Shown here one piece after another: positions 1-38,895 of a stretch of 40,844 bases of DNA; position 1 is the stretch's first letter; every line of letters starts with the position of its first letter. This DNA is from a virus (taxonomy: Duplodnaviria; Caudoviricetes): positions 1-40,844 of IMG/VR virus record IMGVR_UViG_3300037485_001686, one strand, 5' to 3'. The translations under genes and the position numbers were made by a program. The notes under the pieces were generated by a model. That model saw nothing but the letters and a program-made list of their open reading frames with translations. It did no database searches and was not told where the DNA came from.

Positions 1-127
1 TTCACCGTGTCGCTGCCAGACTCCTTGATCCGAATGCTGTCCGGGAAGCCGGGCACGAAGGCGACGCACGGGTATCGGTCCAGCTTGGCGGTCGACGCGT
101 TTCCGCGGCCGACCGAATCAACAAGGA
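1..127. repeat. Direct terminal repeat (circular overlap), copy 1
   Basis: 1-127 is identical to 40718-40844; 127 nt is a typical assembler k-mer overlap. Confidence 0.97.
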
Positions 128-3623: not shown

Positions 3624-3986
3624 TCACTGGCGGGCCGGCTTACCGGGTGCAGCCGGTGCTCCGGCGTCCGGGACGAAAGGGTCCGAAACTTCGGACCATG
3701 ATCCCTGCCGCGTGCTCGCGTCCACGCCCGCGCATCGCACCAGAATGTTCACGCCGACCGGCGCCGCGATCGTGATCGAGAGGCCGGTCGTGGTCTGCGC
3801 CAGCGTGGTCCAGGCCGTTCCGTTGGCGCTGGTCTGCCAGACGTAATGGTGGACCGGGCTGCCGGTCAGCGGCGCCGTGGTCGTGTAGGTGACGTTGATC
3901 GTGGTGGTCTGTCCGCCAACCACCAGCGGAATCAAAAGCGCCGCGGCGAGGGCTGCGGCGATCAGGGTCCTCTGCGATCGGTTCAT
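3624..3986 (-). CDS. Secreted fibronectin type III-like small protein
   Basis: Sec-type signal (MNRSQRTLIAAALAAALLIPLVVGG) then FN3-like pattern (TAPLTGSPVHHYVWQTS, VRCAGVD, GSWSEVSDP, GAPAAPGKP). Confidence 0.75.
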   Translation of the reverse strand: MNRSQRTLIAAALAAALLIPLVVGGQTTTINVTYTTTAPLTGSPVHHYVWQTSANGTAWTTLAQTTTGLSITIAAPVGVNILVRCAGVDASTRQGSWSEVSDPFVPDAGAPAAPGKPARQ

Positions 3987-4202: not shown

Positions 4203-6011
4203 CTACGCCTCGATTCTCACGTGGACAACGGTGCGCGGCTCGAATTGGCTTTCTCCGAAATATGAATCTTTCGTTTCCATCTGGACGCTGCGCTCGATCC
4301 TAATAACGCGCAGCTTGGTGCTCGGTGCCAGGATGAACTCGCGCTGATCCTGGTAGTCCTCATGGACGCCTGCCCACAGGCCTCTCGTTCCGGCCGGTGC
4401 CTCGATCCTGAAAACGACGCCGGATCCCGACCCGAACACGGAGGCCACCGCCTCGTTCAGGGACGTGGATGAGAATGCGGCGTCCCGAATCACGCCGCCG
4501 ACCAGTGAATCGGAAACGGTTTGCGCCACGAGCGTGGCATCCATGCCCGCGGCCACCTCCGCCGCGTTGGCCGGAATCGTGACGCCTGGCCATCCAGACT
4601 CCAGGCCTCGCCAAAGCACCACGCTGTCGTCCAGGGCAGGTGCGGCGTCCAGGGCCTGCATCATGCCGGCCTCGAATGTTTTGTAGTGCTCGGAAAATTC
4701 CTCGTCGGTCGCCACGATCCCGTCCCGGAATTTTTGGCGCCGCCGCATCCGGCGCGTCAGGCCCGACGAATCCTCCTGGTATTGATAAATGAACTCGTTT
4801 GCGCTCCCGCCGATCGCTTTTGTCTGCGCTGCCACGTGGTCCACGTAGAACCGTTCGCCCGTTGAACCGGCCTTTGTCGCAAACGTGGCCGGGTCCACCG
4901 CGTCGCGGGCGGCCTTCTTTGCCTTGGCCTTGGCGACGGGTTCGGCGACGGGCGCCTTTGGGATCGTGCTGCCGCCGGAGGTGTCCGCTTTCTTGACCGT
5001 CACCGGTCCGTCCGCGGCCGGCTTGGCCGCCTTGGCCTTGGCCGGTTTCTTTTCGGCCGCCGACTTGGCCGGCTTTGGCGCGCCCTCGGGCGTCGCCGCG
5101 GGCGCGCTGCTGCCGGACGGCGCCGCGGCGACCAGCGGATCCCCGGTCGCCTCGCTCTGCGTTGGGTTGTAATGGGCCACGACCTTGCATCGGCAATTGA
5201 TCACGTCGGCGGCCGGCAGGGCCGGGTCGTAGGGCCCGTCGATCCGGATCCCGCCGAGCTCGAATTTCTCGCCCTTGCCAGGGTAGATCACCTTGCCGTG
5301 CAGGGCGGCGTGGTCCGGCCTGGGGTCCGGTGAATAATAATGGACCCACTTCTTGCCGAAGCCGGTGTCTCGCTTGGCCAGGTCGTCCAGGCGCGCGGTG
5401 CTGGTCACGTTGGATACGCGGTTCATCTCGGTGCGGAAGATCGCCCGCGCGCGGACCTCTGCCCGCGGGATCACCTGGCCGGGTTTCATCTCGCCCTTGC
5501 CGAGGGGTCCGGTCAGGTTCCCGATCCGCTCGAGGACCTGCTGCCGGCTGGCGGCGCCGCCCAGGGCGAAACGCAGCAGCTCGCCTTGGACCTGCTGGTG
5601 AACCTGGGTGGTCACGTCGGCGATCATCGTCGGCGCCACCGACTTGATCAGGGCGATCTGCTCGGTCGGCAGGACCGGCCGGTACTGGGCCACGTTGACG
5701 CCGAAGGCGGTCAGCGGGTCGTCCACGGCCTGGATCGTGGCGCCGACCGCGGCGTCCATCGCCTGGTTGAAGGCCTGGCCCAGGTCGCGGTCCATCTGGT
5801 CGGCGGCGTCCCGCAGGCGGGCGATCGTCTGCTGCCGCTGCCGCACGCCCCAATCGGACGCCGGGTCGGCCAGGGTGGCGACGGCGGCGTCCCGGTATTT
5901 GATGATGGCAGCCCGGACGTCCGCGGCCATCTGCACGTCCGCGTCCGCCCAGGCTTTCATCGACTTCCGCAGGGCTGCGTTATATGCCGCCTCGCGCTCC
6001 TGGTCGGCCAT
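4203..6011 (-). CDS. MuF (SPP1 gp7-like) minor head protein with C-terminal ADP-ribosyltransferase toxin domain
   Basis: MuF motifs RTEMNRV, KKW...RPDHAALHG, PYDP...INCRC; Ala/Lys/Pro linker; ART R-S-E triad LWRG / FSSTS / QREFIL. Confidence 0.88.
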   Translation of the reverse strand: MADQEREAAYNAALRKSMKAWADADVQMAADVRAAIIKYRDAAVATLADPASDWGVRQRQQTIARLRDAADQMDRDLGQAFNQAMDAAVGATIQAVDDPLTAFGVNVAQYRPVLPTEQIALIKSVAPTMIADVTTQVHQQVQGELLRFALGGAASRQQVLERIGNLTGPLGKGEMKPGQVIPRAEVRARAIFRTEMNRVSNVTSTARLDDLAKRDTGFGKKWVHYYSPDPRPDHAALHGKVIYPGKGEKFELGGIRIDGPYDPALPAADVINCRCKVVAHYNPTQSEATGDPLVAAAPSGSSAPAATPEGAPKPAKSAAEKKPAKAKAAKPAADGPVTVKKADTSGGSTIPKAPVAEPVAKAKAKKAARDAVDPATFATKAGSTGERFYVDHVAAQTKAIGGSANEFIYQYQEDSSGLTRRMRRRQKFRDGIVATDEEFSEHYKTFEAGMMQALDAAPALDDSVVLWRGLESGWPGVTIPANAAEVAAGMDATLVAQTVSDSLVGGVIRDAAFSSTSLNEAVASVFGSGSGVVFRIEAPAGTRGLWAGVHEDYQDQREFILAPSTKLRVIRIERSVQMETKDSYFGESQFEPRTVVHVRIEA

Positions 6012-6015
6012 TGCG

Positions 6016-7554
6016 CTACTCCGGGCTGGTCGCGATGTCGCCGCTCATCGGGTTCGGCGCCGGTAGGTCCGGCTTGTCGGCCGCCTTCTTTTCGATGCCG
6101 GCCAGGGTCTTGCTCATGAGGGCGGACATCTCGGTTTCGCTTTGGGCCTTGTCGGCTGCGCGCGCTGCCTCGTCGGCCTCGATCTTGGTGGCCTCTTCCG
6201 CCGGGTCGACGGTGACGCCGGTCATGGAGGCCACGGCCGAAAACAGGGCGCGCCCGGTTTCGGTGCTGCAGAGCTGGTCGCTCATCGCCTGGCTGATGGC
6301 CTGGGTCATCGTCTGCATTGCGCTGCCGACCTTGGCCACGTCGGGCCCGCTGATGTCAGGCACGATCACGTCAAAAAGATCGCCCATCGGGTCCACGTCG
6401 ATGCCGGCCAGCATGCCGTTCGGGTTCGCGTGCGCGCGCACGATGGCGAAGCGGCAGATGTCGGTGATCAGGTACGTGAACTGCCGTGTTTTCCGCTTGA
6501 GCGCTTTCTTGGTCGGCTCGCTCATCTGCTCGGCGGTGGCCAGGCTCGTTTCGCCGCCGGTCCCGAACCAGTGCTCGGGGTAGCCGTGCCCGCCCATCAG
6601 GTGGCTCTTGACGTCCTTCAGGTGCCGGCTGGCCTCGTAGGCGCCGAGGTTCGGCTGCATTACGTTCCAGTGCACCTTGTCGTTGTGGACCTTCATCGTG
6701 CCCGGCTTTGGCGGGCCCTGGGCCCTGCGGAATTTCTTGATGTCTCCGTCGTCCGCGTCGTCCAGGGTCACGTCGAAGAAATGCGAGAGGGCCACCTTCG
6801 CTCGGTCGGCCTGCACTTTCATTGTCTCGTCGACGATCTCGAACCAGTCCGCTCCGGTGTAGAATTCGCTGATGCCGCGGCGCGCCGTCAGGACGTGATT
6901 GATCTGCGCAAAGAAGCAGTCGCCGACCAGGGTGCCGGCCTCGCGCGAGAACCGGATCACCTCGAGCTTCTGCTGGCCGACCTCTTTCGCCGCGCTGTCG
7001 GTCAGTTTGATGAAGGCCGGCCGTTGTGTCCTGGGGTCCGGCTCGATCTCGACGATCTGCGACGGGTCCACCCATCCGAGCTCGATGTCGCCGGTCAGCT
7101 CGTTCACCTTCACCGGCAGGATCGCCTCGCCCCAGAGATTCAGCTCGAGCAGGCGCTGCGGGTTCAGGCGGTCCATATCATTGATCGGGTCGTTCCAGAA
7201 CCGGTCGAGAACCTCTTGGATCAGGTCCTTGGTTTTGTCGTCGTCATGCTTTGCGACCACGCGCAGGCCGTCGCCCAGGACGAAATCGACGATGATCTCG
7301 AGCATGCGCTTGGCCATGTGATTGTTCCGGTAGAGGTGCAGGGCCACCTTTTGCATGCGCAGCTGGTCGTATCCCGGCAGGTCCTGGCGCGCGCCGTTCA
7401 GGCGCCGGTATCCGGTCGTGTCCTCTCCGAGCTCGTCGACCTCCGCCTCGCTCAGCGTGACCGGTCGTTCGCCGGCAGCGGTGATCTGCCACCCGCTGCG
7501 CATGGAGGCCACCGCCGCGGCGGCGCGCTCGATCAGGGTCATGTCCTTGCGCAT
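6016..7554 (-). CDS. Portal protein
   Basis: 512 aa, directly before MuF; motifs LYRNNHMAKRMLEIIVDFVLGDG, WGEAILPV, GYPEHWFG. Confidence 0.85.
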   Translation of the reverse strand: MRKDMTLIERAAAAVASMRSGWQITAAGERPVTLSEAEVDELGEDTTGYRRLNGARQDLPGYDQLRMQKVALHLYRNNHMAKRMLEIIVDFVLGDGLRVVAKHDDDKTKDLIQEVLDRFWNDPINDMDRLNPQRLLELNLWGEAILPVKVNELTGDIELGWVDPSQIVEIEPDPRTQRPAFIKLTDSAAKEVGQQKLEVIRFSREAGTLVGDCFFAQINHVLTARRGISEFYTGADWFEIVDETMKVQADRAKVALSHFFDVTLDDADDGDIKKFRRAQGPPKPGTMKVHNDKVHWNVMQPNLGAYEASRHLKDVKSHLMGGHGYPEHWFGTGGETSLATAEQMSEPTKKALKRKTRQFTYLITDICRFAIVRAHANPNGMLAGIDVDPMGDLFDVIVPDISGPDVAKVGSAMQTMTQAISQAMSDQLCSTETGRALFSAVASMTGVTVDPAEEATKIEADEAARAADKAQSETEMSALMSKTLAGIEKKAADKPDLPAPNPMSGDIATSPE

Positions 7555-7563
7555 GTCGTTCTC

Positions 7564-7974
7564 CTACGCGGCCGGGGTGTCCGGGGTGTCGGGCCCCAAT
7601 GCGCCCGATCCGTCAATCATCACCTTGGTCCAGATCACCGTTTCGGCGGTGACGTTCTTAAATCCTGGCGCGCTCGTCGTGCAGGTGTATTTGGCGATCA
7701 CCGTGATGCCGTCCGCGCAGGTTACGCCAGGCGGCGAGACCGGCGTCCCGGTGTAGGTGCCGGTCTTGGTCGTGCCGATTTGCGCTCCGCCTGCGGCGTT
7801 GTAGAACTTGATCGTGTAGGAGCAATTGGCCGCAAAAACGGCGTTAATCACGCCGATTTTCCCGAGGGTCATATTCGAGTAGGCCTCGGTCATGGCCGCG
7901 AACTGGTCCTCACCCGCGGCCACCGGCTGCCGCATCACCTCGGCGTTCGCTGCGCTGATCCCCATGCCGATCAT
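7564..7974 (-). CDS. Putative head-spike cargo protein 3 (unknown beta-rich, Thr-rich domain)
   Basis: True start MIGMGISAANAEV with GGAGG RBS; leader resembles those of the two upstream genes. Confidence 0.7.
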   Translation of the reverse strand: MIGMGISAANAEVMRQPVAAGEDQFAAMTEAYSNMTLGKIGVINAVFAANCSYTIKFYNAAGGAQIGTTKTGTYTGTPVSPPGVTCADGITVIAKYTCTTSAPGFKNVTAETVIWTKVMIDGSGALGPDTPDTPAA

Positions 7975-7990
7975 CTCAGGGCCTCCGTTG

Positions 7991-8764
7991 TCATGCCGCG
8001 GTCTGGACGGTGAAGGCGTCGACCGTGGATCCGTCGGCCGCCTTGAACGTGCAGGCCAGGCCGGCTGCCGTGGCTTGGACCTCGAGCCATCCGTGGACGC
8101 TGACCGTCGTGACCAGCGTCGCTGCCGTGCCCACGGTGTCAAGGTGCGCGCCGCCGGTCCCGATCACCAGGAACGTCCGCCCGCCGTACTCGTGCCGCTC
8201 GTAGGCGTGGCCGTGGCCGCCGATCACCAGGTCGACGGCGGCGGCCTCGACGACCGGCAGGAAGGCCGCGCGGATCGTGGCCGCCGCGGCGCCCACGCGG
8301 GCGTTCGCCGAGAAGAGGGGATGATGCAAAAAAAGGACCGTCGGCCGGCCGGCTGGCGCCAGCGACAATTCCAGGGCGGCCATCGCTGCCTGGTTTGTCC
8401 TGATGCCCGCGTCCGAGCCGACCAGGTGGATCCCGCCGTCGATCACGTCCACGCCCGTCGACCAGGGCCATCCCTCGAGGCCTGGCGCGTACCAGTCGTG
8501 ATTGCCTGGGACCGCGATCGCCTGCGGGTAGAGGGCCAGGTAGGTGTCGTACTCGTCGGGCCAGGCGTGCTCGGAAACGTCGCCCGCGTCGTAGACCACG
8601 CCGCCTCCGATGGCCGCCGCGATCGCCGCGGTCGCCGCCTCCGGGTAGGGGTCGGTCCGCGAGAGCTGCACGTCGCTGACGAAACGCAGCGGCGCGTTCG
8701 CCGCGGCTGCCGGCCCTGGGTCGCGCGCTGCGCATTGCGCCATGCCGAAGCCGAGGCCGATCAT
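7991..8764 (-). CDS. Calcineurin-like metallophosphoesterase (purple acid phosphatase-like) with a head-spike docking leader
   Basis: Start MIGLGFGMAQCAA (ATGA overlap with upstream stop); motifs FVSDVQ, AGDV, PGNHD, HHP, GHGHAYER. Confidence 0.85.
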   Translation of the reverse strand: MIGLGFGMAQCAARDPGPAAAANAPLRFVSDVQLSRTDPYPEAATAAIAAAIGGGVVYDAGDVSEHAWPDEYDTYLALYPQAIAVPGNHDWYAPGLEGWPWSTGVDVIDGGIHLVGSDAGIRTNQAAMAALELSLAPAGRPTVLFLHHPLFSANARVGAAAATIRAAFLPVVEAAAVDLVIGGHGHAYERHEYGGRTFLVIGTGGAHLDTVGTAATLVTTVSVHGWLEVQATAAGLACTFKAADGSTVDAFTVQTAA

Positions 8765-9363
8765 GGCCGCTCCTGGTATCCCGCGGGCGCCGTTCCCTCG
8801 TTCATCATGGCGCCTGCCATCCACCTGGTCTGCCCGACCGCCGCGGCGCCGTTGAAGAGCTCGAATCGCGCCTGGAGGTTCTTGGCGTGCAGGCCGCGGG
8901 CCTCGAGGTCCAGCCATGCCCAGATCCGGTACCAACCGCTGCCCACGTCGGCGATCCCTCCGCCATCGGCGGTGTTGGCCGCCAGGCCGAAGGTCAGATC
9001 ACCGAACACGGTGTAGACCTGCTGGAAAATCGCGGCATCGGTCGCGTTGTAAATCCGGACCGACCCGTAGCTGTTGAACACGGCGGCGCTCTTGAAAAAC
9101 GCGCTCAGGCAGATCCTGGGCTCGGTCACGTAGACCGCGCTTTGGCCGGCTCGCTGCGACCAGTTGGATCCGGCGCCCGTCGCAACCATCGCGGTCGCCT
9201 TGGTCCCTCCCCAGGGATCAGGCTGGCCGGCAACGGCCGAGAAGGCTGCCGGTGCTCCGCCCCAATACGCCGCGCTGAATTGCCAGGAATCGGCGAGCAG
9301 GTTCCCTCGCTGCAATGAATCGAGCGCTGCGCATTGCGTGACTCCCAGGCCGATCCCGAACAT
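8761..9363 (-). CDS. Head spike fibre protein (RcGTA Rcc01080-like, carbohydrate-binding jelly-roll type)
   Basis: Leader MFGIGLGVTQCAA; NLL..S.QF...W, PDP.GG, GWYR.W, GAM.NEG..P.GY pattern. Confidence 0.7.
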   Translation of the reverse strand: MFGIGLGVTQCAALDSLQRGNLLADSWQFSAAYWGGAPAAFSAVAGQPDPWGGTKATAMVATGAGSNWSQRAGQSAVYVTEPRICLSAFFKSAAVFNSYGSVRIYNATDAAIFQQVYTVFGDLTFGLAANTADGGGIADVGSGWYRIWAWLDLEARGLHAKNLQARFELFNGAAAVGQTRWMAGAMMNEGTAPAGYQERP

Positions 9364-9376
9364 GGCGGCGCCTCCG

Positions 9377-9622
9377 CTAGTAGAGGTAGAGCACGTCGTA
9401 GCCGGTGATCGTCACGGCGCCCCAGACCTCAATCGGCAAAACCTGGAAGGGCACGCGGAAGGTGATGTTCCCTGCGGTGGCCTTGTTGGGTGCGGTGAAT
9501 TGCGTACCGGTGGTCGCGGCCAGGGCGATCGCCTTGGTCCCGCGGTTCGTATCGACCGTGGTCCTGAAGTCGCCGCTCGGGCTCATCGCGCGGATTGCCT
9601 CGAGCTCGCTCTTGATCGCCAT
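9377..9622 (-). CDS. Head spike base protein (RcGTA Rcc01079-like)
   Basis: 81 aa; SP...TKAI...ITF.VP...LPIEV...T...VLYLY* pattern; lies directly before GxGxG-leader genes. Confidence 0.65.
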   Translation of the reverse strand: MAIKSELEAIRAMSPSGDFRTTVDTNRGTKAIALAATTGTQFTAPNKATAGNITFRVPFQVLPIEVWGAVTITGYDVLYLY

Positions 9623-9637
9623 GTCGGCCCTCCCTGG

Positions 9638-11221
9638 TCAGTAGCGTCCGCGCAGCTGCGGGCCGTGCTCGCGCTCGTTGTCGTCTGCCGGCTCGCCGTC
9701 CTCCGGGTCATCTCCCCAGGAGGCCGCTCGCCCGCTGAACAATGCCAAGGTAATAGCACCGACCAGGGCGTCCACGCAATCGTCATTATCGCCGTCCGGG
9801 AACGTGCAGAGCTCTTCGATCATCACGGCCATCGCGCGCCCGCGGGCGGTGTCGGGCATCGGGAAAAACACTTGCCCGCCCTCGAAGCAGGGCGCTACTC
9901 GCTGCGCGCGGAAGAACTTATCCGTTTCGACGGCCACCGGAATGATCCGCCTGTCGATCCGCTCCTGCAGCTCCTGGGCAAATCCGGCTTGCATGGCGAC
10001 GGCCTCGACGCCGTGGCGGGCCGGGTTCCACTTTGCGACGGCCTGCTGAATGTTCGCCCGCATCTTGCCCATGCCGCAGCGCTCGTGGATCAGGTCCAGG
10101 ACGTAGACCTGGCGCAGGGCGATCTCCCGGCCCTCGGTGACGCCGATCGTGACCGTGGCCATGAAATCGCCCGCGCTGGTCCGCTTGGCCGGCAGGTCGG
10201 TGTACTGGTAGATCGCCAGGCCTTTCGGCACGGCCACCTGGTCCGCGTCCGCGGCGCCGTACCACTTGAATTCCGGGTACCGAAAGACCAGGCCGTCGGC
10301 GCTGCTCGTGTCCTGCTGCATTTGGGCGTTGAAATGGTACCGGCCCATTTTGCGGCGCCTCTTCTGGAGGTGCTCGGTCGTGAACCGCTCCGGGTAGTTG
10401 CTTGTCTCCTGGCCGTCGGGCCCGACCACCAGCGCCGGGATCTTGAGGACGGTTCCCTGGAGGACGCCGCCGTCCTCATCGATCCGGCCCTGGTCGAGGA
10501 CCTGGTATTGGTCGTTCGGATAGTACCGGGTGCCCACGTAATGGGTGCGGGTCGTTTCGAGGGCGCATCCTAGCATCGTGCTGCCATGCCACTCGGTCAG
10601 GTTGTCGCGCTGCTTTTTTGTGCGGCTATTCCGGATCGTGACCAGGTCGTCGAGGATGATGACCTCGAAATGCATGGAGGCCGCCTGGCCGCCTACGCCC
10701 AGGCAGGTGAAGGTGGCCTCGCTGATCGTCGGGTCGGTGCGCAGGAGGCTGGTCGCGTAGCTGTCCCGGTACCGGCCCAGGTCGCTGTACCGGTCGGCGC
10801 CGAAAAACCGGCCGAACATCTCGATCATGTCGCGGTTGGTCTGGAGAATCGTGCGGATCTCGCGCAGCATGCGCTCGGCTGCGGTTTGGGTGTCCGAGAC
10901 CAGGAGGATCCGCGCGTTCGGGTCGTCCAGGTGATACTTGATGGCCCGGACGATCGTGCCCACCGTGCTCTTGCCGAAGCCGCGCGCGCCCAGGACCATG
11001 TCCGCGTCGCGGGCGCCGAAGGCGACCAGGTTTTGGTGCTCGATGATCTGCAGGTGCGGCCGGTGAACGAAATAGCCGCAGGTCCGCGCGAGCCAGTAGA
11101 CGGCCTCAGCCTGCCGGGTCTTGTCCGGTCCCTGGTAGCTGATCGTCGCCTTCAGGCGCAGCAGGTAGGCTCTCCGCTCTTGGCGCGCTAATTCCGACTC
11201 TTGTGCTCTCCGGGATGCCAC
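9638..11221 (-). CDS. terL: Terminase large subunit
   Basis: Walker A GARGFGKST, Walker B IILDDLV, VGTRY, nuclease FPDGDNDDCVDA; GTG start with GAGGA RBS. Confidence 0.95.
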   Translation of the reverse strand: MASRRAQESELARQERRAYLLRLKATISYQGPDKTRQAEAVYWLARTCGYFVHRPHLQIIEHQNLVAFGARDADMVLGARGFGKSTVGTIVRAIKYHLDDPNARILLVSDTQTAAERMLREIRTILQTNRDMIEMFGRFFGADRYSDLGRYRDSYATSLLRTDPTISEATFTCLGVGGQAASMHFEVIILDDLVTIRNSRTKKQRDNLTEWHGSTMLGCALETTRTHYVGTRYYPNDQYQVLDQGRIDEDGGVLQGTVLKIPALVVGPDGQETSNYPERFTTEHLQKRRRKMGRYHFNAQMQQDTSSADGLVFRYPEFKWYGAADADQVAVPKGLAIYQYTDLPAKRTSAGDFMATVTIGVTEGREIALRQVYVLDLIHERCGMGKMRANIQQAVAKWNPARHGVEAVAMQAGFAQELQERIDRRIIPVAVETDKFFRAQRVAPCFEGGQVFFPMPDTARGRAMAVMIEELCTFPDGDNDDCVDALVGAITLALFSGRAASWGDDPEDGEPADDNEREHGPQLRGRY

Positions 11222-18306: not shown

Positions 18307-18753
18307 CTAGAGGCCCAGGCGTCGGCGCTGCTCGCTCTTCGACCGGTCGTATTCCTCCTTTGCCACCTCGCGCGCGCGGGCCACGCTGCCGAACCTTTCG
18401 ACCAGGCACTCGACCATCTCCGGCGTCAGGTCCGCGTCGCCGCCGGAGGCCTCGATGCCGAGCTCGAATGCTGCCGCGCGGAATGTCCGCAGGCCTTTCG
18501 ACATCGGCGGTTCGGCCGGCTGCGGTTCGGCCGGCTGCGCGCGCGCGATCGGGATGTCGCACCGCAGGCACCACAGGGCGTGCCCGTAGAGGCGGCGCTG
18601 CGGTGCCCGGTCCAGGTCGAATCCCGCCCACCCGGTCTTGAGGACCAGGAGCCCTCGGATCTGCTCGCCCTCGCGCGCGAACGAAAGCAGGCGGATGTCC
18701 AGGTGCCAGTCGTGCGCGCGCATTACCGAAATCTGGATCAGGGTGGCGATCAT
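18307..18753 (-). CDS. Hypothetical protein
   Basis: GGAGG RBS, ATGA overlap. Confidence 0.55.
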   Translation of the reverse strand: MIATLIQISVMRAHDWHLDIRLLSFAREGEQIRGLLVLKTGWAGFDLDRAPQRRLYGHALWCLRCDIPIARAQPAEPQPAEPPMSKGLRTFRAAAFELGIEASGGDADLTPEMVECLVERFGSVARAREVAKEEYDRSKSEQRRRLGL

Positions 18754-19034: not shown

Positions 19035-19288
19035 GGTGCCACCACCTCCCTCAGCGTTTCGCGCCAGGCGCTGTACAGGTCGCCGTCGACCGTGGCCGTG
19101 TCCACGTACCACCAGTTGGCCTCTGCGACCATCAGGTTGCGCCCTTCGCTTTTCTCCCACCAGCTCCGGCCGGCTGTCGGTTTCGTTTCAAACGCCCAGA
19201 TCGACCCGGTCGCGTCGCAGGCCACCCACCGGGCCCAATCCGGCACGCAGAGATGCGTGGAAAACTGGATCACCCTGCTGCCGGCCAT
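19031..19288 (-). CDS. Trp-rich small phage protein
   Basis: VPDWARWVACDATGSIWAFETKP pattern; TGATG coupling to the SbcCD gene. Confidence 0.65.
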   Translation of the reverse strand: MAGSRVIQFSTHLCVPDWARWVACDATGSIWAFETKPTAGRSWWEKSEGRNLMVAEANWWYVDTATVDGDLYSAWRETLREVVAP

Positions 19289-22200
19289 CAGAGCACCTCC
19301 ACCCGGCTCGTGCCGCCGTCATCGACCACCCGCAGGACGTGGTCCGCGACTTCGCTCATGCCGGGCACGTGCGAAATCACCAGGAAGGTCCCGCGCTTGG
19401 CCGCGATGTTCCGCAGCGTCGCCTTGCTCGCCTCGAGGTTGTCCGGGTCCAGGGTCCCGAATCCCTCATCTTGGACCGCGAGCCACATGCGCGACCCGGT
19501 GGCGCGCGCCGTCAGCTCCGCGATCCCGTACCGGAGGCTGCCGCCGACGTGGAATCGCTGCGATCCGCTGGCCGCTCCTTTCGGGTGCCGGCCGCGGTGG
19601 TCGGTGTAGGTGATCTCGACCGCGTTCCTGCTCTCGCCCGTCTGCAGCTCGCGCTCGGCCTCGACCTGGACCGACAGGCCGGTGCCGGCCAGGTACTCGT
19701 TCGCCACCGCCTGCAGGGTCGGAATGCTGAATTGCTCGAGCATCAAAAACGGGATGCCGTCCCGGTTCACCGCGTCGCAGTAGAGCGCCGCGATCGCCGC
19801 GGTGTTGTCGTGCCAGGTGGCTGCCTCGCGCAGGACGGACACGCGATGGCTGTCCTCAGCCACGCTGGCCGCCCTGGCCTCGGCGCCCGCGATCGCGCCG
19901 ACCGTCCGCTCGATCTCGGTCCGGCACTCCGCGGCCGATGCCTGGAATCGCGCGGCGACGACCTCGCAGGCGTGGATCGTGATGCCGCTGCTGATCAGCG
20001 CCTCGTGCATGCTGTCCGCTTGCGCGGCCTCGGCCCGCAGGCGTTGGATCTCCGCGGCGAGCGGCGCCAGGTCCTGGCCGATCTGCAGGCGGTCGGCGGC
20101 CAGGTGCGACTTGCGCTCGAGCGCCTCCCGGTACTCTCGCGCCTGGCGGTCGGCGGCCACCGCCGCGGCCAGCTGCTGGAGCATGGCTGCGCGCCGGTCC
20201 TCCGCCTGCCGGCCAGCCGCGGCGATCTCCTGCTCGCGTTCCGCGATCTCGGCGTCGACCAGGGTCAGGGCCTCGGCCGCCCGCCGGGCGTCGGCATCGC
20301 GGTTGTCCGCATCCTCGATCGCGTGGTCATGTGCCAGGGCCAGCTCCGGGATCCGCGCCTTGGCCGCCTTGGCGTCGGTCAGGAACTGGCAGGCGCCGCA
20401 GTCGCGCTCGTCCGCGATCGGGTCCGGGTGGCTGTAGAGGCGGTCGCCCTCGCAGGGCACGCGGTCGATCAGGGCCGCCTGGCGGGCGGCCTCGACCAGA
20501 TCCCGGTTGGCCCGCTCCGCCGCCGTCGCTGCCGCCTGCGCTGCCCGGCTCGCCGCCTGCGCGGTCGATGTCCGCTCGGCCCGTACCCGCCGGCAGTCGT
20601 CCAGGTCGGCCCGCAGGAGGGCGGTGGCTGCCGCCTCGAGGGCCGGCAGGTCTGCCAGGTCGGCCTCGATGTCGGCCGTGGTCCGCATGCCTCCGGTCGG
20701 CAGGCCGCGGTCGACTACCGCGTCGCAGGCATCCTGGCCGGCCTGGAGCTCTCTCATGCGGTCCAGCAGGGCCCGCTGGCGCCGCTCAGCCTGGCCGGCC
20801 TGCTCGGCCGCCCGCTGCGCGGTCGCCAGCGTCGCCTCCCGCTGGCCGGCCCGCGTGCGCGCCGCCTCGAGCTCCGCCGTGGCCTTGGCCGCTCCGGCCT
20901 CGTGCTCGGCCAGGTCGGCCCGGCGCTCGTCCAGGCGGCTGCGCAGGGCCGGCAGCAGGTCCGGGCCGTCGGTGCGGGAAACGATCGACGCCTCGATCGC
21001 CGCGACCTGGTCGCGGGCCCGGCGCGCCTCGGCCTCGGCCGCCGTCCGGCAGGCGGTTCCCTCTTTCTGCCGGGACGCGAAATCGCGCTGGAGGACCTGC
21101 ATTAGGAGATCCTTCATCTCGCCTGGCGTCAAATCCAGGAGGGCGTCCACCTCGTTTTGGCCGGCAAAGGCCGTTGCCAGGAACAGCTCGGCCGGCCCGA
21201 TCAGGCGCTCGATCGCGTCCTGCGTTTCGCGGGCCGTTCCCTCCGCCACCGGGATCGCTCCGCCCGTCGCGGCGTCCGGCGCCGTGATGTCCAGGAAATG
21301 CAGGGCCGCCGTGGCGCCGCGGCTGGTCCGCTTGGCCTCCCGAATGATCCGGTAGGTCTTGCCGCCGCTCTCGAAATCGAAGGTGACTCGCATCCAATCG
21401 GCGCCCTTGCGGATCAGGTCGTCCAGCCGGTTTCCGCTCACCTGCCGCTTGTAGAGGGCGAAGAGGACCGCGCGGCTGATGTTCGACTTGCCGCTGTAAT
21501 TCGGGCCCTCGACCACGACCAGGCCGCTCAGCCGGCTGAAATCCACGTGCGCCTCTGCGTACTGGCACCAGTTTTCGACGGTCAGCGCGAGCGGTTTCAT
21601 CTCGTATCGCGCGTCCAGGTGCCGGTCCTTAACTCGCTCTTCGATCTCGGCGCCGAGCGCCTGCAGGCCGGCCAGCGGCGCGCCCTCGATCTTTTTCATC
21701 TCGGCCCACCGCTGCAGGGCGTCGAGGATCGAGGCCCCGGTGCCGATGTCGGTCCTGGCGGTCGAGCTGTCCGTTCGCTCGCTGATTACCTTGAGCGCCT
21801 GCAGGCCGAGGGCCTCGCCCATCTCCCGCGCGCGCGCGTGATCGATCGTGTCAATCACCGCGGCTGGCGCGTGCACGCACACGCGGGCCCGGTCGCCGCG
21901 CCCGGCGCGCGTGACCACCGCGTCCGCGACCATCTCGTTCACCTGGTCGCCCGCCTCGGCGTCGACGTCCATGTGGATCAGCTGCGAAACCACCGGCAGG
22001 CGCAGGAGGTCGACCCGGACGTCGGGCGTCCCGTCCAGGGTCACGACCCACATGCCGGGTTCCAGCTTTTGGTCGTTCCAGGTCAGCGGCGCCGGGGCTC
22101 CGCAGTAGAGGATCCGCGGCGCCGCCGCGGTGGCCGGGATGTCCTGGCGGTGATGGATGTGGCCGGCCAGCACGATGTCCGCTCCCGCGAATGCCGCGGC

Positions 22201-22809
22201 CGGCAGCTGCAGGTCGACGCCGCTCGGCATCTGCCGCTCGTCGCCCAGGGTGGCGCCGCCCAGGGTGCCGTGGTAGATCACGACGACGTTCCGGCAAAAC
22301 GGGATCATCCTGGCCTCGCCGATCAGGCCCCGGACCATCGTCGCCATCAGGTCGTTCACGTCTGCGCCCTCTTCCGCGCGCGCCTTGGCCCAATACTTGT
22401 TCGGTGTCGGGATGCAAACGAAGGCAGCCATCGCCGGGCTCCGGTCGTCTGTAAACGGGTGCGCGATCACGCGCGGCGTCGCGGCCAGCTGCAGGAACCC
22501 ATCGCCGTGCTCGTCCTGGCCGGCCAGGATCCCCTCGACCATGCCCACCCGTTCCGCGTGGAAGCTCTGATCATGATTGCCGGCCACGACGATGCCGCCG
22601 TGGGCCGCGGCGAAGGAGCCGCGCTGGATCAGGCGCCGGACCTCGCGGGAAACGTGCGGGTGGACGCTGGATCGGTTGACCACCAGGTCGCCCGCGTGGA
22701 CGAAAACGTCGAAGCTCGGCGCCGCCGCCAGGCCGGCCTCGATGGCCGGCACCGTGTACGGCAGGTTCCCCATGTCCAGGTGCCAGTCGCCTGTCATCAG
22801 GATTTTCAT
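19288..22809 (-). CDS. Single-chain SbcD-SbcC (Mre11-Rad50) nuclease-ATPase fusion
   Basis: Nuclease motifs GDWH, AGDL, GNHD, GHIH; Walker A GPNYSGKS, Q-loop AGQ, coiled coil with central Cys cluster (VPC...CGAC), signature ASGSQ, Walker B/D-loop QDEGFGTLD, H-loop VISH. Confidence 0.92.
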   Translation of the reverse strand: MKILMTGDWHLDMGNLPYTVPAIEAGLAAAPSFDVFVHAGDLVVNRSSVHPHVSREVRRLIQRGSFAAAHGGIVVAGNHDQSFHAERVGMVEGILAGQDEHGDGFLQLAATPRVIAHPFTDDRSPAMAAFVCIPTPNKYWAKARAEEGADVNDLMATMVRGLIGEARMIPFCRNVVVIYHGTLGGATLGDERQMPSGVDLQLPAAAFAGADIVLAGHIHHRQDIPATAAAPRILYCGAPAPLTWNDQKLEPGMWVVTLDGTPDVRVDLLRLPVVSQLIHMDVDAEAGDQVNEMVADAVVTRAGRGDRARVCVHAPAAVIDTIDHARAREMGEALGLQALKVISERTDSSTARTDIGTGASILDALQRWAEMKKIEGAPLAGLQALGAEIEERVKDRHLDARYEMKPLALTVENWCQYAEAHVDFSRLSGLVVVEGPNYSGKSNISRAVLFALYKRQVSGNRLDDLIRKGADWMRVTFDFESGGKTYRIIREAKRTSRGATAALHFLDITAPDAATGGAIPVAEGTARETQDAIERLIGPAELFLATAFAGQNEVDALLDLTPGEMKDLLMQVLQRDFASRQKEGTACRTAAEAEARRARDQVAAIEASIVSRTDGPDLLPALRSRLDERRADLAEHEAGAAKATAELEAARTRAGQREATLATAQRAAEQAGQAERRQRALLDRMRELQAGQDACDAVVDRGLPTGGMRTTADIEADLADLPALEAAATALLRADLDDCRRVRAERTSTAQAASRAAQAAATAAERANRDLVEAARQAALIDRVPCEGDRLYSHPDPIADERDCGACQFLTDAKAAKARIPELALAHDHAIEDADNRDADARRAAEALTLVDAEIAEREQEIAAAGRQAEDRRAAMLQQLAAAVAADRQAREYREALERKSHLAADRLQIGQDLAPLAAEIQRLRAEAAQADSMHEALISSGITIHACEVVAARFQASAAECRTEIERTVGAIAGAEARAASVAEDSHRVSVLREAATWHDNTAAIAALYCDAVNRDGIPFLMLEQFSIPTLQAVANEYLAGTGLSVQVEAERELQTGESRNAVEITYTDHRGRHPKGAASGSQRFHVGGSLRYGIAELTARATGSRMWLAVQDEGFGTLDPDNLEASKATLRNIAAKRGTFLVISHVPGMSEVADHVLRVVDDGGTSRVEVL

Positions 22810-24449: not shown

Positions 24450-25001
24450 CTACCTCCGGTCCTGGATGAAGCGCCGCAGCGGCCACCAGGGCTCCCAGGT
24501 CCGGCGCGTGAAGGCCGGCCGCACCTGGTCCTGGTCGATGTAGGCGAACCAGGTTTCGCCCGGCTTGAAAAAGACCAGGACGTCGCCGTCGGCGAGCATG
24601 TCGTGGTCCATGTAGCTGCGGACCAGGGTCCTGATCGCCTCGTCGCGTTCGGCCTTGGTGAAGTCGAGGCCTCGCTGCCGGCGAACGTCCGGCTTGGAGA
24701 TCGTGGGGTCCAGGGCGTCGCCCTCTGCGCGCTCGACGATCAGCCGGAAGTCGCGGGAGCGGCTGGAGGTGGTCCGTTCCATCATCCAGCCGTATGTGAA
24801 GAGCCAGCGGTTGCGCCACCGGCACTGGATCATGGCGACCGCCTCTTCCGACTGCTGGCTCATCTCGCCGCCGCGGCGCCAGGCGCTCACCGCTGCCGGT
24901 GTCACGCCGAGCCAGGCGGCCAGGGCCTCGCCGCTGCCGGCGACGTCGATCAGGGTTTCTAGCTGCTCTCGTTCCACGTCGTGCTCCTTTCCTGGTTTCA
25001 T
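24450..25001 (-). CDS. Cro-like HTH protein with an extra C-terminal domain
   Basis: Start MKPGKEH; GSGEALAAWLGVTPAAVSAWRRG. Confidence 0.7.
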   Translation of the reverse strand: MKPGKEHDVEREQLETLIDVAGSGEALAAWLGVTPAAVSAWRRGGEMSQQSEEAVAMIQCRWRNRWLFTYGWMMERTTSSRSRDFRLIVERAEGDALDPTISKPDVRRQRGLDFTKAERDEAIRTLVRSYMDHDMLADGDVLVFFKPGETWFAYIDQDQVRPAFTRRTWEPWWPLRRFIQDRR

Positions 25002-25183
25002 GTCGGGTCCCTCGAAATCTTGAAGGCGGCCGGGGCGTCGATCCCGACCTTCGCGTGCCCGCGCGGGTTCCCGGTCAGCGGCTCCCTTGATGTGCTGGTC
25101 GCGCAAATCGTGATCACGATCTGCCGGCCGTCGCCGAGGTCGATCCGGATCCGCTCGCCGGTCTTGCGATCAATTAGCAGCAT
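24998..25183 (-). CDS. csrA: CsrA/RsmA-family translational regulator
   Basis: MLLIDRKTGERIRI...AKVGIDAP..FKISRD matches the CsrA pattern ML.L.RK.GE.I.I...V.IGI.AP....I.R.E. Confidence 0.8.
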   Translation of the reverse strand: MLLIDRKTGERIRIDLGDGRQIVITICATSTSREPLTGNPRGHAKVGIDAPAAFKISRDPT

Positions 25184-25970: not shown

Positions 25971-26227
25971 CGGTTTCCCTCCGCCAGCGCTGCCCATGCG
26001 CGGCTGATCCTGCCGTTAACGACGACCGTGACAAAATCGAAAGACTCCCCGGCGCGCGTGGCCTCCGCTCCCTCGGTCCAGACCGTGTCGCGGCGGCGGT
26101 GGCCGTTCCGGATCGTGGCGCCGTCGCCGTAGGCGGCGATGATCGCCGCCGCGTCCTCCGCGTACCGGCAGGAGGCGACGTATTCGCCGTCGGCGGTGTA
26201 GACCTTCAGGGCGGGTGCGGCGGCCAT
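25967..26227 (-). CDS. Small hypothetical protein
   Basis: MAAAPALKVYTADGEYVASC; TAATG coupling. Confidence 0.65.
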   Translation of the reverse strand: MAAAPALKVYTADGEYVASCRYAEDAAAIIAAYGDGATIRNGHRRRDTVWTEGAEATRAGESFDFVTVVVNGRISRAWAALAEGNR

Positions 26228-26613
26228 TACTTGACCTCCGCCCGGCCGGCCTTGCGGCCGACCTCGTAGGCGGCGCGCAGCGCCTGGGCCAGGTCGCCCT
26301 TGGCGATCTCGATGCCGTCCTGGTCCTCGATGCCGCCGACCGGCATGTCCTCGATGTCCAGGATCCGCAGGGCGATCGTCTGGATCTCCTGGTCCCGCCA
26401 ATCCTCCGCCGTGACCACCGCGTCCTCCCACCAGCAGAGGGCGGCGTCCATCGCCGCGTCGGCGACGTCCTCTTCCGCGGTGCTCAGGCTCTCGTTCACC
26501 CGGTCGACCATCCGGTCCATGTCCAGGCCGGCTGCCCAGGCCAGGCGGGCGGTTTCGGCGCCGCTCCGGTGCGCCCAGGCGATCCGGCTGTTGTCGCTCT
26601 CGTGCGTGCTCAT
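26227..26613 (-). CDS. Early protein with a degenerate DUF6900-like C-terminal module
   Basis: IALRILDIE...LAQALRAAYEVGRKAG. Confidence 0.6.
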   Translation of the reverse strand: MSTHESDNSRIAWAHRSGAETARLAWAAGLDMDRMVDRVNESLSTAEEDVADAAMDAALCWWEDAVVTAEDWRDQEIQTIALRILDIEDMPVGGIEDQDGIEIAKGDLAQALRAAYEVGRKAGRAEVK

Positions 26614-27329
26614 TACTTCGCCTCCGCCTTTCCCGCCGTGCGGCCGGCCATGTAGGCGGCGACCAGGGCGGCCTGCAGGTTCCAGCAGGCGATCTCGTGG
26701 AAATCCGCGCGGTCGCTGTTGACCGGCGCCAGGCTCTCGATCCCGAGGATGTCGGCGGCGATCTGGTCGACCTTGTTCTTGGCGGTGATCGTCAGGTAGG
26801 TCTTTTCGCGGGCGGTCATCTTGTCGTTCCGCGCGCGGCAGGCCTCGAGGTCGTCCCGGATCTGCAGGCTGCGCATCTGCGCGGTGTGGAGGGCGCCGTG
26901 CTGCGCGTCGGTCAGGCCGACGCCGATCGTGTCCCGCAGGACCTCGAGGCGGCCGATCGTCCTGGCGACCTCGATGTTTTCGTTCAGCAGCATCTGCTCG
27001 TCGGTCGGGCCCGCGGGCGCCGCGGCGGCGCTGGCTGCCTGGCGGCCGGCCTCCGCCTGCGCGGCGGCGATCGTGCGGTCCAGGAAGGTCCGCTCATTGG
27101 CGGCTTTCATGCCGGCCGCCAGGGCGGTGGTTTCGGTGTGGAAGAGCCGCGCGTTCCCGTTCCGGTCCAGCAGGAGGGCGCCGTTGACGCGGACGGTGTT
27201 GTACCGGCCGCCGCCGTGGCCGACCGGGCGCGTGATCTCGATCGTGCAGCCGTCGCCCTCGTGCCGGATGATCTCGTGCGTGCCGCCGTGGGGCGTTTCG
27301 AAGGTGCTGGTCGTGCGGGTCGTTTTCAT
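26613..27329 (-). CDS. First early gene; C-terminal DUF6900-like domain
   Basis: Start MKTTRTT with GGGAGAG RBS; IAADILGIESL...SDRADFHEIACWNLQAALVAAYMAG. Confidence 0.7.
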   Translation of the reverse strand: MKTTRTTSTFETPHGGTHEIIRHEGDGCTIEITRPVGHGGGRYNTVRVNGALLLDRNGNARLFHTETTALAAGMKAANERTFLDRTIAAAQAEAGRQAASAAAAPAGPTDEQMLLNENIEVARTIGRLEVLRDTIGVGLTDAQHGALHTAQMRSLQIRDDLEACRARNDKMTAREKTYLTITAKNKVDQIAADILGIESLAPVNSDRADFHEIACWNLQAALVAAYMAGRTAGKAEAK

Positions 27330-36666: not shown

Positions 36667-37923
36667 CTACGGCAGCGCTCCGACTCCGGTCGCCTGGTTG
36701 TCTCTCGACCAGCAATATTGCCGGCTGTTGCGGATCACCAGGTAGAGCTCGCTCGCCTTAACCAGCGTCATGCCGCCCGCCAGGGTGGTCACCCAGGTCG
36801 GCGCCGCTGCAGGGAAGGCCTCGAATTCCAGCGATCCCTCGATGATGCCGGTCCCGCTCACCGGGAAATTGGCGGCGGCGATCCGGACCAGCGGGCAAAT
36901 GAATTGCACCGTCGGGTACCAACCGGTCGAGGCCGGGGTCGGTGAATCGGTGCTCATCATCACGTCCGGCGCTGCGAATTTCAGCGAGAGCTGCAGGTCG
37001 GTGCCGGCCCGCAGGGCGGCCGGGAACGTATCGGCCGTGTACCTGGCCAGCTTGACCGTGCCTTTGACCTCCCGGCGCCCGCTGCGCATCGGCTCGCTCT
37101 TGTAGCGGCTGTTGGCGCCCGACTCGAATACCTCATCCAGCGGGTTGGTCAGGGTCAGGGTGATTTCCTTGACGCCGATCTCTGTCGGCGCGCTCGCGCC
37201 CGCGGCGCTCAGGCCCACGCGCAGGTGCGGGAACATCGCCTTGACCTTGCTGGTCGGCAGGACCCAATTGGTCAGGTTCATCGCGTCGGTGTCGTTCTTG
37301 TAGGGCGAAAGGTCCCACTCCACCGTCACGCCCTCGAGGCTCGCGCGGATCGTCATGCTCCGAACCATCGCGTTGATGTACCGCCAGGCCTCGCCTGCCG
37401 GCACGCCCTTGGCGATGCCCACGTCCACGCACCGGACCTTCTGGTCGCCCGCCACCCAATAGGTCGCGTCGCCTGCGACGCCGGAGCTGATCGCCCGCTC
37501 GCCGCTCGCCCAGGGCGACCGGTGCAGGGTGTCGTCCAGCTCGAAGAGGTGCTGGTAGGCGCCCGCCAGCAGGACCGTGGTCCCGCGCCAGGGCGCCGGG
37601 CTGCCGCCGCTGCCGGCACCGTGGGCCCCGGTGTAGACCGTCGGGCAGAGGTAGCCCATCGCCGCGTAGAAGAGGTACTCGAGGCCCTCGTACCACAGCT
37701 CGGTCGTCATCGTGCCGCCGGGGTTCTCCGCCACGACGTCCGCGTCGACGGTGGCCGCGGTTCCCTCGAGGGCGTCTGTCTTGTCCATCGTCACCGGGTT
37801 GGTCAGGCCCTCGCTCACGAATGGCACCTGGTTTGTCGGCGACGCAGCCACCGTTCCCCATGCCGAATTAACCGCGGGCCTCTTGACCACGCACTTTGTC
37901 AGGGCTCCCGAATATCCGCTCAT
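36667..37923 (-). CDS. Tail tube protein, paralog 2
   Basis: PFVSEGL, ELWYEGLEYLFYAAMG, VRSMTI, FPHL, PMRSGRREVKGTVKLARY. Confidence 0.75.
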   Translation of the reverse strand: MSGYSGALTKCVVKRPAVNSAWGTVAASPTNQVPFVSEGLTNPVTMDKTDALEGTAATVDADVVAENPGGTMTTELWYEGLEYLFYAAMGYLCPTVYTGAHGAGSGGSPAPWRGTTVLLAGAYQHLFELDDTLHRSPWASGERAISSGVAGDATYWVAGDQKVRCVDVGIAKGVPAGEAWRYINAMVRSMTIRASLEGVTVEWDLSPYKNDTDAMNLTNWVLPTSKVKAMFPHLRVGLSAAGASAPTEIGVKEITLTLTNPLDEVFESGANSRYKSEPMRSGRREVKGTVKLARYTADTFPAALRAGTDLQLSLKFAAPDVMMSTDSPTPASTGWYPTVQFICPLVRIAAANFPVSGTGIIEGSLEFEAFPAAAPTWVTTLAGGMTLVKASELYLVIRNSRQYCWSRDNQATGVGALP

Positions 37924-37935
37924 GTCGCCCTCCCG

Positions 37936-38895
37936 TTAGGCCGCGATGATCTGCAGCTGGTCGGTGATCGCCACCATCGGTGTGTTGTGGAGGTTCCGGT
38001 ACGCCTCGAGCGTGATGGCGCCCTCGATCATGGCCGGCCCGCCGACGTTGAAATCGGCGCCCTCGCTGATCTTGCAGTCCGGAATGTACATCGTGTAGCT
38101 GTCGGCGCCGGAAACCAGGACCAGCATCGCCTGCAGGCGCGTTCCGGCCGTTTTCCAACCGCGCAGGCTCGTGGTCGGCGCCGTGCTCAGGTATCGCGCC
38201 AGGCCGAGCTTGCAGGTCACGACCCGGACGCCGTTCCGCAACGGGTCCAGGACGTAGGCCGGGTCGCTGCTGTCCTTCGCGTCGGCCTGCAGGGCATTGT
38301 CCACGCTGACCTCGAAGCTCTTGACCGGCAGGGCGTCGCCCACGGCCAGGGCGTCGGCCTGGTCGCCGATCCAGACGCCGCTCACCGCGGACGCGATCAG
38401 GTGCGGGAAAAGGACCGGCGCTCCCGGCGCCGCCAGGGACGCGAAGGTCCCGGCGTTCGCCACGGTCACGCTGCGGGCCGTCACGTTCATCGTCAGCTTG
38501 ACGGGCTCTTCGCCCGCCTGGCCGCTGATCGTGAAGCTGTTCACCTTGACGCCTGCGAATTTGTAGACCTTGGTCACGCGGTCGATCGTCAGGTGGAAAT
38601 ACTTGGCCAGCTGCGCGGTGAAGGTGTACGTGCGGGTCGTCACGGCGCCCATGCAATACTCGAGGATCGGGTCGCCGTCGTAGCAAAGCTCGACCACGAT
38701 CTCGCCGCTCACCATCAGGTGCCCGACCTCGAATTCGTGCTGGCTCGCGTAGCCCAGGAGGGCCTGCGACCGCAGCTTGTCGTAGGCCTCGGTCATCGAC
38801 TCGCTCAGGATCCGCAGCTTGGCCGTTTCTTGCACGTGGGCCTGCGACCAGCTCGTGCCCGCCGCCCATCCCGCTTGCGCCAGTACTCCGCTCAT
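37936..38895 (-). CDS. Tail tube protein, paralog 1
   Basis: Start MSGVLAQ; ILSESM, ELCYDG...YCMG, VNSFTI, FPHL, PLRNGVRVVTCKLGLARY. Confidence 0.75.
   Translation of the reverse strand: MSGVLAQAGWAAGTSWSQAHVQETAKLRILSESMTEAYDKLRSQALLGYASQHEFEVGHLMVSGEIVVELCYDGDPILEYCMGAVTTRTYTFTAQLAKYFHLTIDRVTKVYKFAGVKVNSFTISGQAGEEPVKLTMNVTARSVTVANAGTFASLAAPGAPVLFPHLIASAVSGVWIGDQADALAVGDALPVKSFEVSVDNALQADAKDSSDPAYVLDPLRNGVRVVTCKLGLARYLSTAPTTSLRGWKTAGTRLQAMLVLVSGADSYTMYIPDCKISEGADFNVGGPAMIEGAITLEAYRNLHNTPMVAITDQLQIIAA

Follow-up and report, generated by a model that had tools for sequence, protein, structure and literature searches.

A candidate head-spike base followed by three leader-bearing genes, one a predicted metallophosphoesterase, in a complete tailed phage

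Between the terminase and portal genes of a tailed phage lies a compact cassette of four genes (Table 1), in which a small protein, very probably the base of a spike on the capsid vertices, is followed by three genes whose products begin with the same kind of short leader of alternating hydrophobic residues and glycines. One of the three carries the fibre domain of the head spike of the Rhodobacter gene transfer agent (RcGTA), one is a predicted metallophosphoesterase, and one is an orphan. The model we favor, with moderate confidence and by analogy to RcGTA, is that each of the leaders would plug its cargo into a pentamer of the base.

The window (the whole stretch of DNA analyzed, 40,844 nucleotides) is a tailed phage record with direct terminal repeats, i.e., a complete virus. 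Its tailed-phage genes include those for the large terminase subunit (terL), portal, MuF, a protease-capsid fusion, two tail-tube proteins, and the tape measure. The four ORFs of the cassette, their coordinates, and the three N-termini given in a preliminary description of this DNA were all found as described when the sequence was reread. The genes are separated by 15 nt (terL to base), 13 nt (base to cargo 1), −4 nt (cargo 1 to cargo 2), 16 nt (cargo 2 to cargo 3), and 9 nt (cargo 3 to portal). An RBS-like GGAG precedes all four ORFs, and their GC3 ranges from 0.82 to 0.90. The dataset that best matches the window sequence is a sediment metagenome, possibly the origin of the record. No RNA dataset containing the window sequence was found among the matches listed.

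Table 1. Position of the cassette and its flanking genes within the window
Feature	Position	Strand	Basis or remark
Terminase large subunit	9638..11221	-	Upstream flank of cassette; phrog_38, E 7e-75
Spike base (putative), 81 aa	9377..9622	-	Divergent subfamily of Rcc01079 (GhsA) family; hhalign and structure search
Cargo 1, 200 aa: leader and GTA spike-fibre domain	8761..9363	-	NF048003
Leader of cargo 1, codons 1-13, F-G-I-G-L-G-V	9325..9363	-	Sequence; alternation score 13.8
Cargo 2, 257 aa: leader, Pro/Ala linker, and predicted calcineurin-like metallophosphoesterase	7991..8764	-	PF00149/PF12850
Leader of cargo 2, codons 1-13, I-G-L-G-F-G-M	8726..8764	-	27/36 nt identical to leader of cargo 1; alternation score 14.0
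Cargo 3, 136 aa: weaker leader (I-G-M-G-I-S-A) and orphan beta-rich domain, possibly Ig/FN3-like	7564..7974	-	Alternation score 11.3
Portal	6016..7554	-	Downstream flank of cassette; phrog_10963, E 3e-27

Several other features of the window are recorded here in their own right. The minor head protein MuF (4203-6011, -) carries a C-terminal ADP-ribosyltransferase domain (PF04233 and PF03496), a known type of polymorphic MuF. The two tail-tube genes (36667-37923 and 37936-38895, both -) stand in tandem and both match PF18906. A tandem pair of DUF6900 genes is accompanied by a CsrA-like gene (26227-27329 and 24998-25183, both -). A fusion of SbcD and SbcC (Mre11-Rad50) of 1173 aa (19288-22809, -) has in its first codons an 18-nt block in common with the start of the ORF at 18307-18753, and a 20-nt repeat is found at 18330/18803.

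The RcGTA particle bears eleven spikes, each a base pentamer with one fibre, and residues 2-10 of the fibre, I-A-L-G-L-G-L-G-L, lie as a five-point star in hydrophobic pockets of the base (PMC7296036). The likeness of this spike (Rcc01079/GhsA and Rcc01080/GhsB; PDB 6TB9; NF048002 and NF048003) to the cassette lies in a small base followed by a gene with both the alternating hydrophobic/Gly start and the spike-fibre domain. The differences are that the base of the window belongs to a divergent subfamily below the family cut-off, that three leader genes are present rather than one (one of them a metallophosphoesterase and one an orphan), that their leaders are shorter (three to four hydrophobics), and that the genome is that of a complete tailed phage, with terL on one side of the cassette and portal on the other. 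Only cargo 1 has the spike-fibre domain, as in RcGTA; cargoes 2 and 3 are without NF048003.

Searches with the models of Pfam, PHROG, and NCBIfam give the base no name. NF048002, the curated model for spike bases (cut-off 28 bits), matches neither the base of the window nor the 16 + 4 members of its subfamily (the control, P0019, scores 106 bits), and an HMM built from canonical bases gives the window base only 1.7 bits. A search at E 0.001 collected 17 proteins for the subfamily, of which 14 (73-88 aa) were kept and three long repeat proteins dropped, and further finds brought the alignment to 22 rows. When the subfamily was compared by hhalign with 45 bases of the Rcc01079 family, gathered from the homologue in phage RcapNL, the match had a probability of 90.3, an E-value of 1.5e-6, and a score of 36.6, as against a maximum of 14.2 over 60 column shuffles. 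A second pair of alignments gave 93.2 and 2.9e-7. Homology of the 81-aa protein to Rcc01079, as the preliminary description had proposed, is thus upheld at the level of profiles, though NF048002 misses the protein.

The Rcc01079 family has a small jelly-roll fold. When an AlphaFold model of the window base (pLDDT 83, pTM 0.64) was compared with 48,161 chains by VIA-align, Rcc01079 (6tb9_E3) came out on top; the alignment pairs residues 1-81 with 1-84, the whole length, but is weak (Z 3.0, rmsd 7.3, 64 aligned). Foldseek of the same model against the PDB and BFVD gave no match at E 0.001. PDB sequence searches with the base, the base alignments, and cargo 1 gave nothing significant, and the leads from an Atlas search with the base all fell under 0.9. 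The PDB chain 8cjz_h, 'Spike Base Protein', we take to be from phage Carin-1. On the strength of the profiles and the model, we read the base as a divergent homologue that would work like Rcc01079, outside the curated family.

The leaders are distinctive within the genome. The start motif M-x(0-3)-[GS]-h-G-h-[GS]-h matches three times in the six frames of the 40.8 kb, and the three are exactly the cargo ORFs, the bodies of which have no mutual similarity. All three show the hydrophobic-Gly alternation of the RcGTA fibre plug, with four, four, and three large hydrophobic residues in cargoes 1, 2, and 3, respectively, versus five in RcGTA; equally short leaders occur in many single-cargo loci of a survey encompassing 169 distinct base matches (164 canonical and 5 of the window-base subfamily). 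Alternation was scored by a home-made measure, set by hand, with the results in Table 1. As background, antisense starts reach 12 or more in 1 of 2936 cases and 11 or more in 3 of 2936, whereas in the survey 37 of the 150 first ORFs downstream of a base score 11 or more.

According to the preliminary description, the leader was copied as a DNA module onto a new domain, as witnessed by a 15-mer that cargoes 1 and 2 have in common. The 15-mer is there, at 8725-8739 and 9324-9338, each 25 nt from the ATG, and it lies inside a 54-nt repeat (78%) that takes in the RBS. On its own, however, it amounts to no more than chance, because the genome (68% GC) has 61 exact repeats of at least 15 nt, and another pair of gene starts has an 18-mer in common, out of register; the 15-mer was therefore rejected as sole proof of copying. 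A comparison in register fares better. Over nt 4-39, cargoes 1 and 2 are identical at 27 of 36 nt, more than any other of the 1081 pairings that 47 gene starts allow (the next best has 21), and the identity takes in codons rare in the genome (CAA, 0.15; GCA, 0.08). Cargoes 2 and 3 are identical at 21 of 36 nt, which only ties with unrelated pairs of starts, so copying at the DNA level is supported for cargoes 1 and 2 but not for cargo 3. What survives of the earlier claim is the copying between cargoes 1 and 2, which has further support in the leaderless relatives of cargo 2 described below.

Cargo 1 matches NF048003 with 40 bits (cut-off 36) over residues 18-195, which bears out its earlier designation as a GTA-type spike fibre comparable to Rcc01080, and it has homologues after the base in two other loci, L001 and L075. 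It may bind glycans, by analogy to Rcc01080 only. That it docks on the base we hold to be highly likely.

Cargo 2 had been described as an enzyme, and as a prediction this holds: it exceeds the cut-offs of PF00149 (27.1 bits vs 21.5) and PF12850, and the five metal-binding motifs of a calcineurin-like metallophosphoesterase are present and conserved (D31, D59/D62, N88-H89, H147, and H184/H186). Its closest solved relatives are purple acid phosphatases (E 1e-5). A Pro/Ala linker joins leader and enzyme domain. Twelve close homologues at 40-67% identity were compared (nine proteins and three viral loci, with the fragment P0030 swapped for its full-length cluster mate). None of the twelve has the leader; eleven start with a short hydrophobic stretch and one starts at the domain. 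Ten end in a C-terminal tail, [TS]W-x-x-[VIL]K-x-[LM][YF], which cargo 2 is without; in the tree, cargo 2 falls together with two proteins that have the tail (91/91, not starred). Since the leader is absent from all relatives and the tail, present in most of them, is absent from cargo 2, a graft of the leader onto an enzyme of the exported type is the likeliest history; most simply, the graft would have replaced both ends of a probably exported enzyme. We consider it fairly likely that cargo 2 docks on the base.

The conserved tail is probably a secretion signal of the host, perhaps that of Latescibacterota/Krumholzibacteria-type bacteria, which would provide a lead to the host. Proteins P0022-P0029 and P0036 and loci L089 and L091 represent small phosphoesterases of one family, some of them phage-borne, with a conserved tail of the type W-x-x-V-K-x-L-Y-R. 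A 120-aa ORF in the head operon of the window (3624-3986, -) has a signal-peptide-like start, and its predicted cleavage exposes a Gln, a possible hint of a host in the FCB group. A look-alike of this ORF, judged by eye, adjoins the phosphoesterase gene of another phage (L091, 5409-5774).

Perhaps, alternatively, the leaders are themselves export or membrane signals that took the place of the hydrophobic N-terminus of the enzyme family, with no role on the capsid. The leader of cargo 2 does stand in the same position as the short hydrophobic stretch of its relatives. However, the leaders have no basic n-region and a peak hydropathy over 11 residues of only 1.2-1.6, as compared with 2.9 and two basic residues in a signal-peptide-like ORF of the same genome. 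The same motif, moreover, is a solved docking peptide in RcGTA (PMC7296036) and shows a strong association with first ORFs downstream of a base. We regard export as a most improbable role for the leaders.

A more serious challenge to docking is that cargo 1 may be the only spike fibre, the RBS and first codons having been copied to express an inserted gene, with the leader of cargo 2 (and that of cargo 3) a mere passenger and the enzyme active in the cytoplasm or lysate. Since the copied segment includes the RBS (the 54-nt repeat covers both RBS and start), copying for the sake of translation alone could suffice, and cargo 2, without both ends of its relatives, would stay cytoplasmic. It also speaks for a passenger that the three viral homologues of cargo 2 are stand-alone genes (no base of the subfamily was found in their records, which are incomplete) and that Pfam finds no enzyme among 27 other leader-bearing cargoes. 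Yet the leaders of cargoes 1 and 2, while differing at 9 of 36 nt, have kept the Gly/hydrophobic alternation, the Pro/Ala linker sets the leader apart from the enzyme, and second leader ORFs occur in four other loci.

Close relatives of the window bear on the same question. At least two of them are present in an independent run, X2, with an identity of about 87-92% and with depth in each of the 30 bins from terL to portal. The coding indels listed for their cassette come to a net three bases. Within codons 1-13 of cargo 2, the relatives have L4F, F6L, and three synonymous changes, whereas codons 15-29 have D15E, P18L, A20S, two changes in N23, V29I, and the insertion of one codon. In other words, the plug positions swap only L and F, and the linker takes nonconservative changes and an insertion. 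The changes in the leader fit selection on the alternation, the events being few (five substitutions in three to four contigs). All told, we judge a passenger leader to be unlikely, though it is the strongest of the competing explanations.

Cargo 3 belongs to no family in Pfam, PHROG, or NCBIfam. No relative was found in viral contigs (18 candidates, none confirmed) or in cultured phages, and an Atlas feature search gave no lead. A low-confidence model has a TM of about 0.5 to Ig/FN3-like parts, and the domain is beta-rich and possibly Ig/FN3-like. Its leader is the weakest of the three, and docking on the base is here only slightly favored. One might therefore suppose that all three cargoes dock but unequally, cargo 1 on most vertices and cargoes 2 and 3 as minor, low-occupancy, or conditionally expressed components, or that cargo 3 has another partner. 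The few large hydrophobics (three) and low score of the cargo 3 leader would agree with this, as would its DNA, not measurably closer to that of cargoes 1 and 2 than to unrelated starts. On the other hand, the leaders of cargoes 1 and 2 are nearly equivalent, and the cassette is part of a single late operon with little space between the genes and RBSs that are alike, which suggests co-expression. Unequal docking seems to us improbable.

The docking model gains from the recurrence of the arrangement in other loci. The subfamily was sampled at five distinct loci, with three leader genes after the base in the window, two in L001, two in L075 (where the contig then ends), two in L082, and one in the locus represented by L068/70/72/73. 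Among the canonical rows, 33 have a first cargo that is complete and bears a leader, with at least 300 nt of room; of these, only L145 has a second leader gene. Two or more leader genes are therefore found in 4 of 5 subfamily loci vs 1 of 33 canonical rows, a trend with a Fisher p of 3e-4 (2e-3 without the window) among loci that are not independent. The leaders of L075 and the second leaders of L001 and L145 were called by regular expression or by eye, below the score threshold; three later high-scoring starts were set aside, those in L017 and L132 because they lie at a distance from the cassette or overlap with other genes and that in L141 because it belongs to a second base. Pattern scans for bases were prone to false matches (5 of 10, 9 of 12, and 3 of 3 were not bases) and yielded no prophage in a named genome.

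The second cargoes differ among L001, L075, L082, and L145. One conserved second partner was considered, because in the five subfamily loci the second cargoes that are small all measure 133-143 aa, but it gained no support: BLASTP finds no homology among them. Leaders usually resemble each other most within a locus. The top four scores for pairs of leaders (50, 43, 33, and 28) are within-locus, and all 48 between-locus pairs are lower (25 at most), indicating repeated local copying of leaders; the likeness is absent for L001 (13) and for cargo 3 of the window (17-20). In L145, a canonical base is followed by cargoes of 795 and 502 aa (6070-8457 and 8752-10260), whose first 70 nt are near-identical and whose products are about 30% identical over the first 170 aa only. 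This is, judged by sequence, an independent duplication of a leader. A survey of domains behind the leader, as suggested earlier, found lectin-like or Ig-like domains in five of the 27 other cargoes and a Pfam enzyme over cut-off in none, so the enzyme cargo does not recur in the sample.

Two further arrangements came to light in the survey. Micro-ORFs of 47-69 aa, mostly leader, stand directly after a canonical base in L010, L024, L042, L053, L185, and L203, some preceding a larger leaderless gene, and possibly encode adaptor peptides. In L141 (2731-4584), two complete units of base plus cargo stand in tandem on one contig.

Phages that bind teichoic acid carry virion-associated phosphodiesterases on their tails. 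These resemble the present case in placing a phosphoester hydrolase (here predicted) on the outside of the virion, and they differ in belonging to other enzyme families and in sitting on tail appendages instead of being plugged into a vertex of the head. The products gp29 and gp30 of Rhodobacter phage RcapNL are a base and a leader-bearing cargo with a body unlike that of Rcc01080. A prophage region of R. capsulatus has one base homologue with two fibre homologues (rcc02905 with rcc02899 and rcc02903; PMC5026251); the sections of that article at hand list the homologues and propose neither a common docking leader nor interchangeable cargoes. In phage phiM1, alpha-claw and alpha-paw have one capsid-binding module in two gene products, one of them with an added fibre, and differ in fold and site (the two-fold axes) and in binding the capsid directly, without a socket protein (PMC11440229). 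Neither multi-cargo spike cassettes nor enzyme cargoes were found in the literature searched, mostly open-access texts; the works compared were PMC7296036, PMC5026251, PMC11440229, PMC12796354, PMC7602432, bioRxiv 2021.08.04.455094, and bioRxiv 2025.06.11.659172.

Under the docking model, base pentamers would occupy up to 11 capsid vertices (the stoichiometry of RcGTA), and in each pentamer a single cargo would be held by its leader, following the RcGTA pattern. With one cargo per vertex and three co-transcribed cargoes, competition and mixed heads would result. Cargo 1 would bind a glycan of the host surface; cargo 2, brought to the surface of the virion instead of being exported by the host, would cleave phosphate esters found in the host envelope or in the surroundings; and cargo 3 would provide another small adhesin. 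More broadly, and with a little less than an even chance in our estimation, the tag of 10-13 residues may be a portable code for capsid display, repeatedly copied onto new domains by phages of the subfamily, by which an exported host-type phosphoesterase was captured through exchange of its export signals for the plug, leaving 11 vertices with a random mix of adhesins and an enzyme.

The spike-base family would gain a subfamily that current models miss. If the proposed mechanism is correct, then the copying of about 50 nt before any domain may be the single step by which a phage acquires a new surface function, and genetically identical virions can have different heads. The range of head spikes would extend from adhesins to enzymes, and the leader would offer capsid display a useful genetically encoded tag, very short and with one-to-five binding to a small pentamer.
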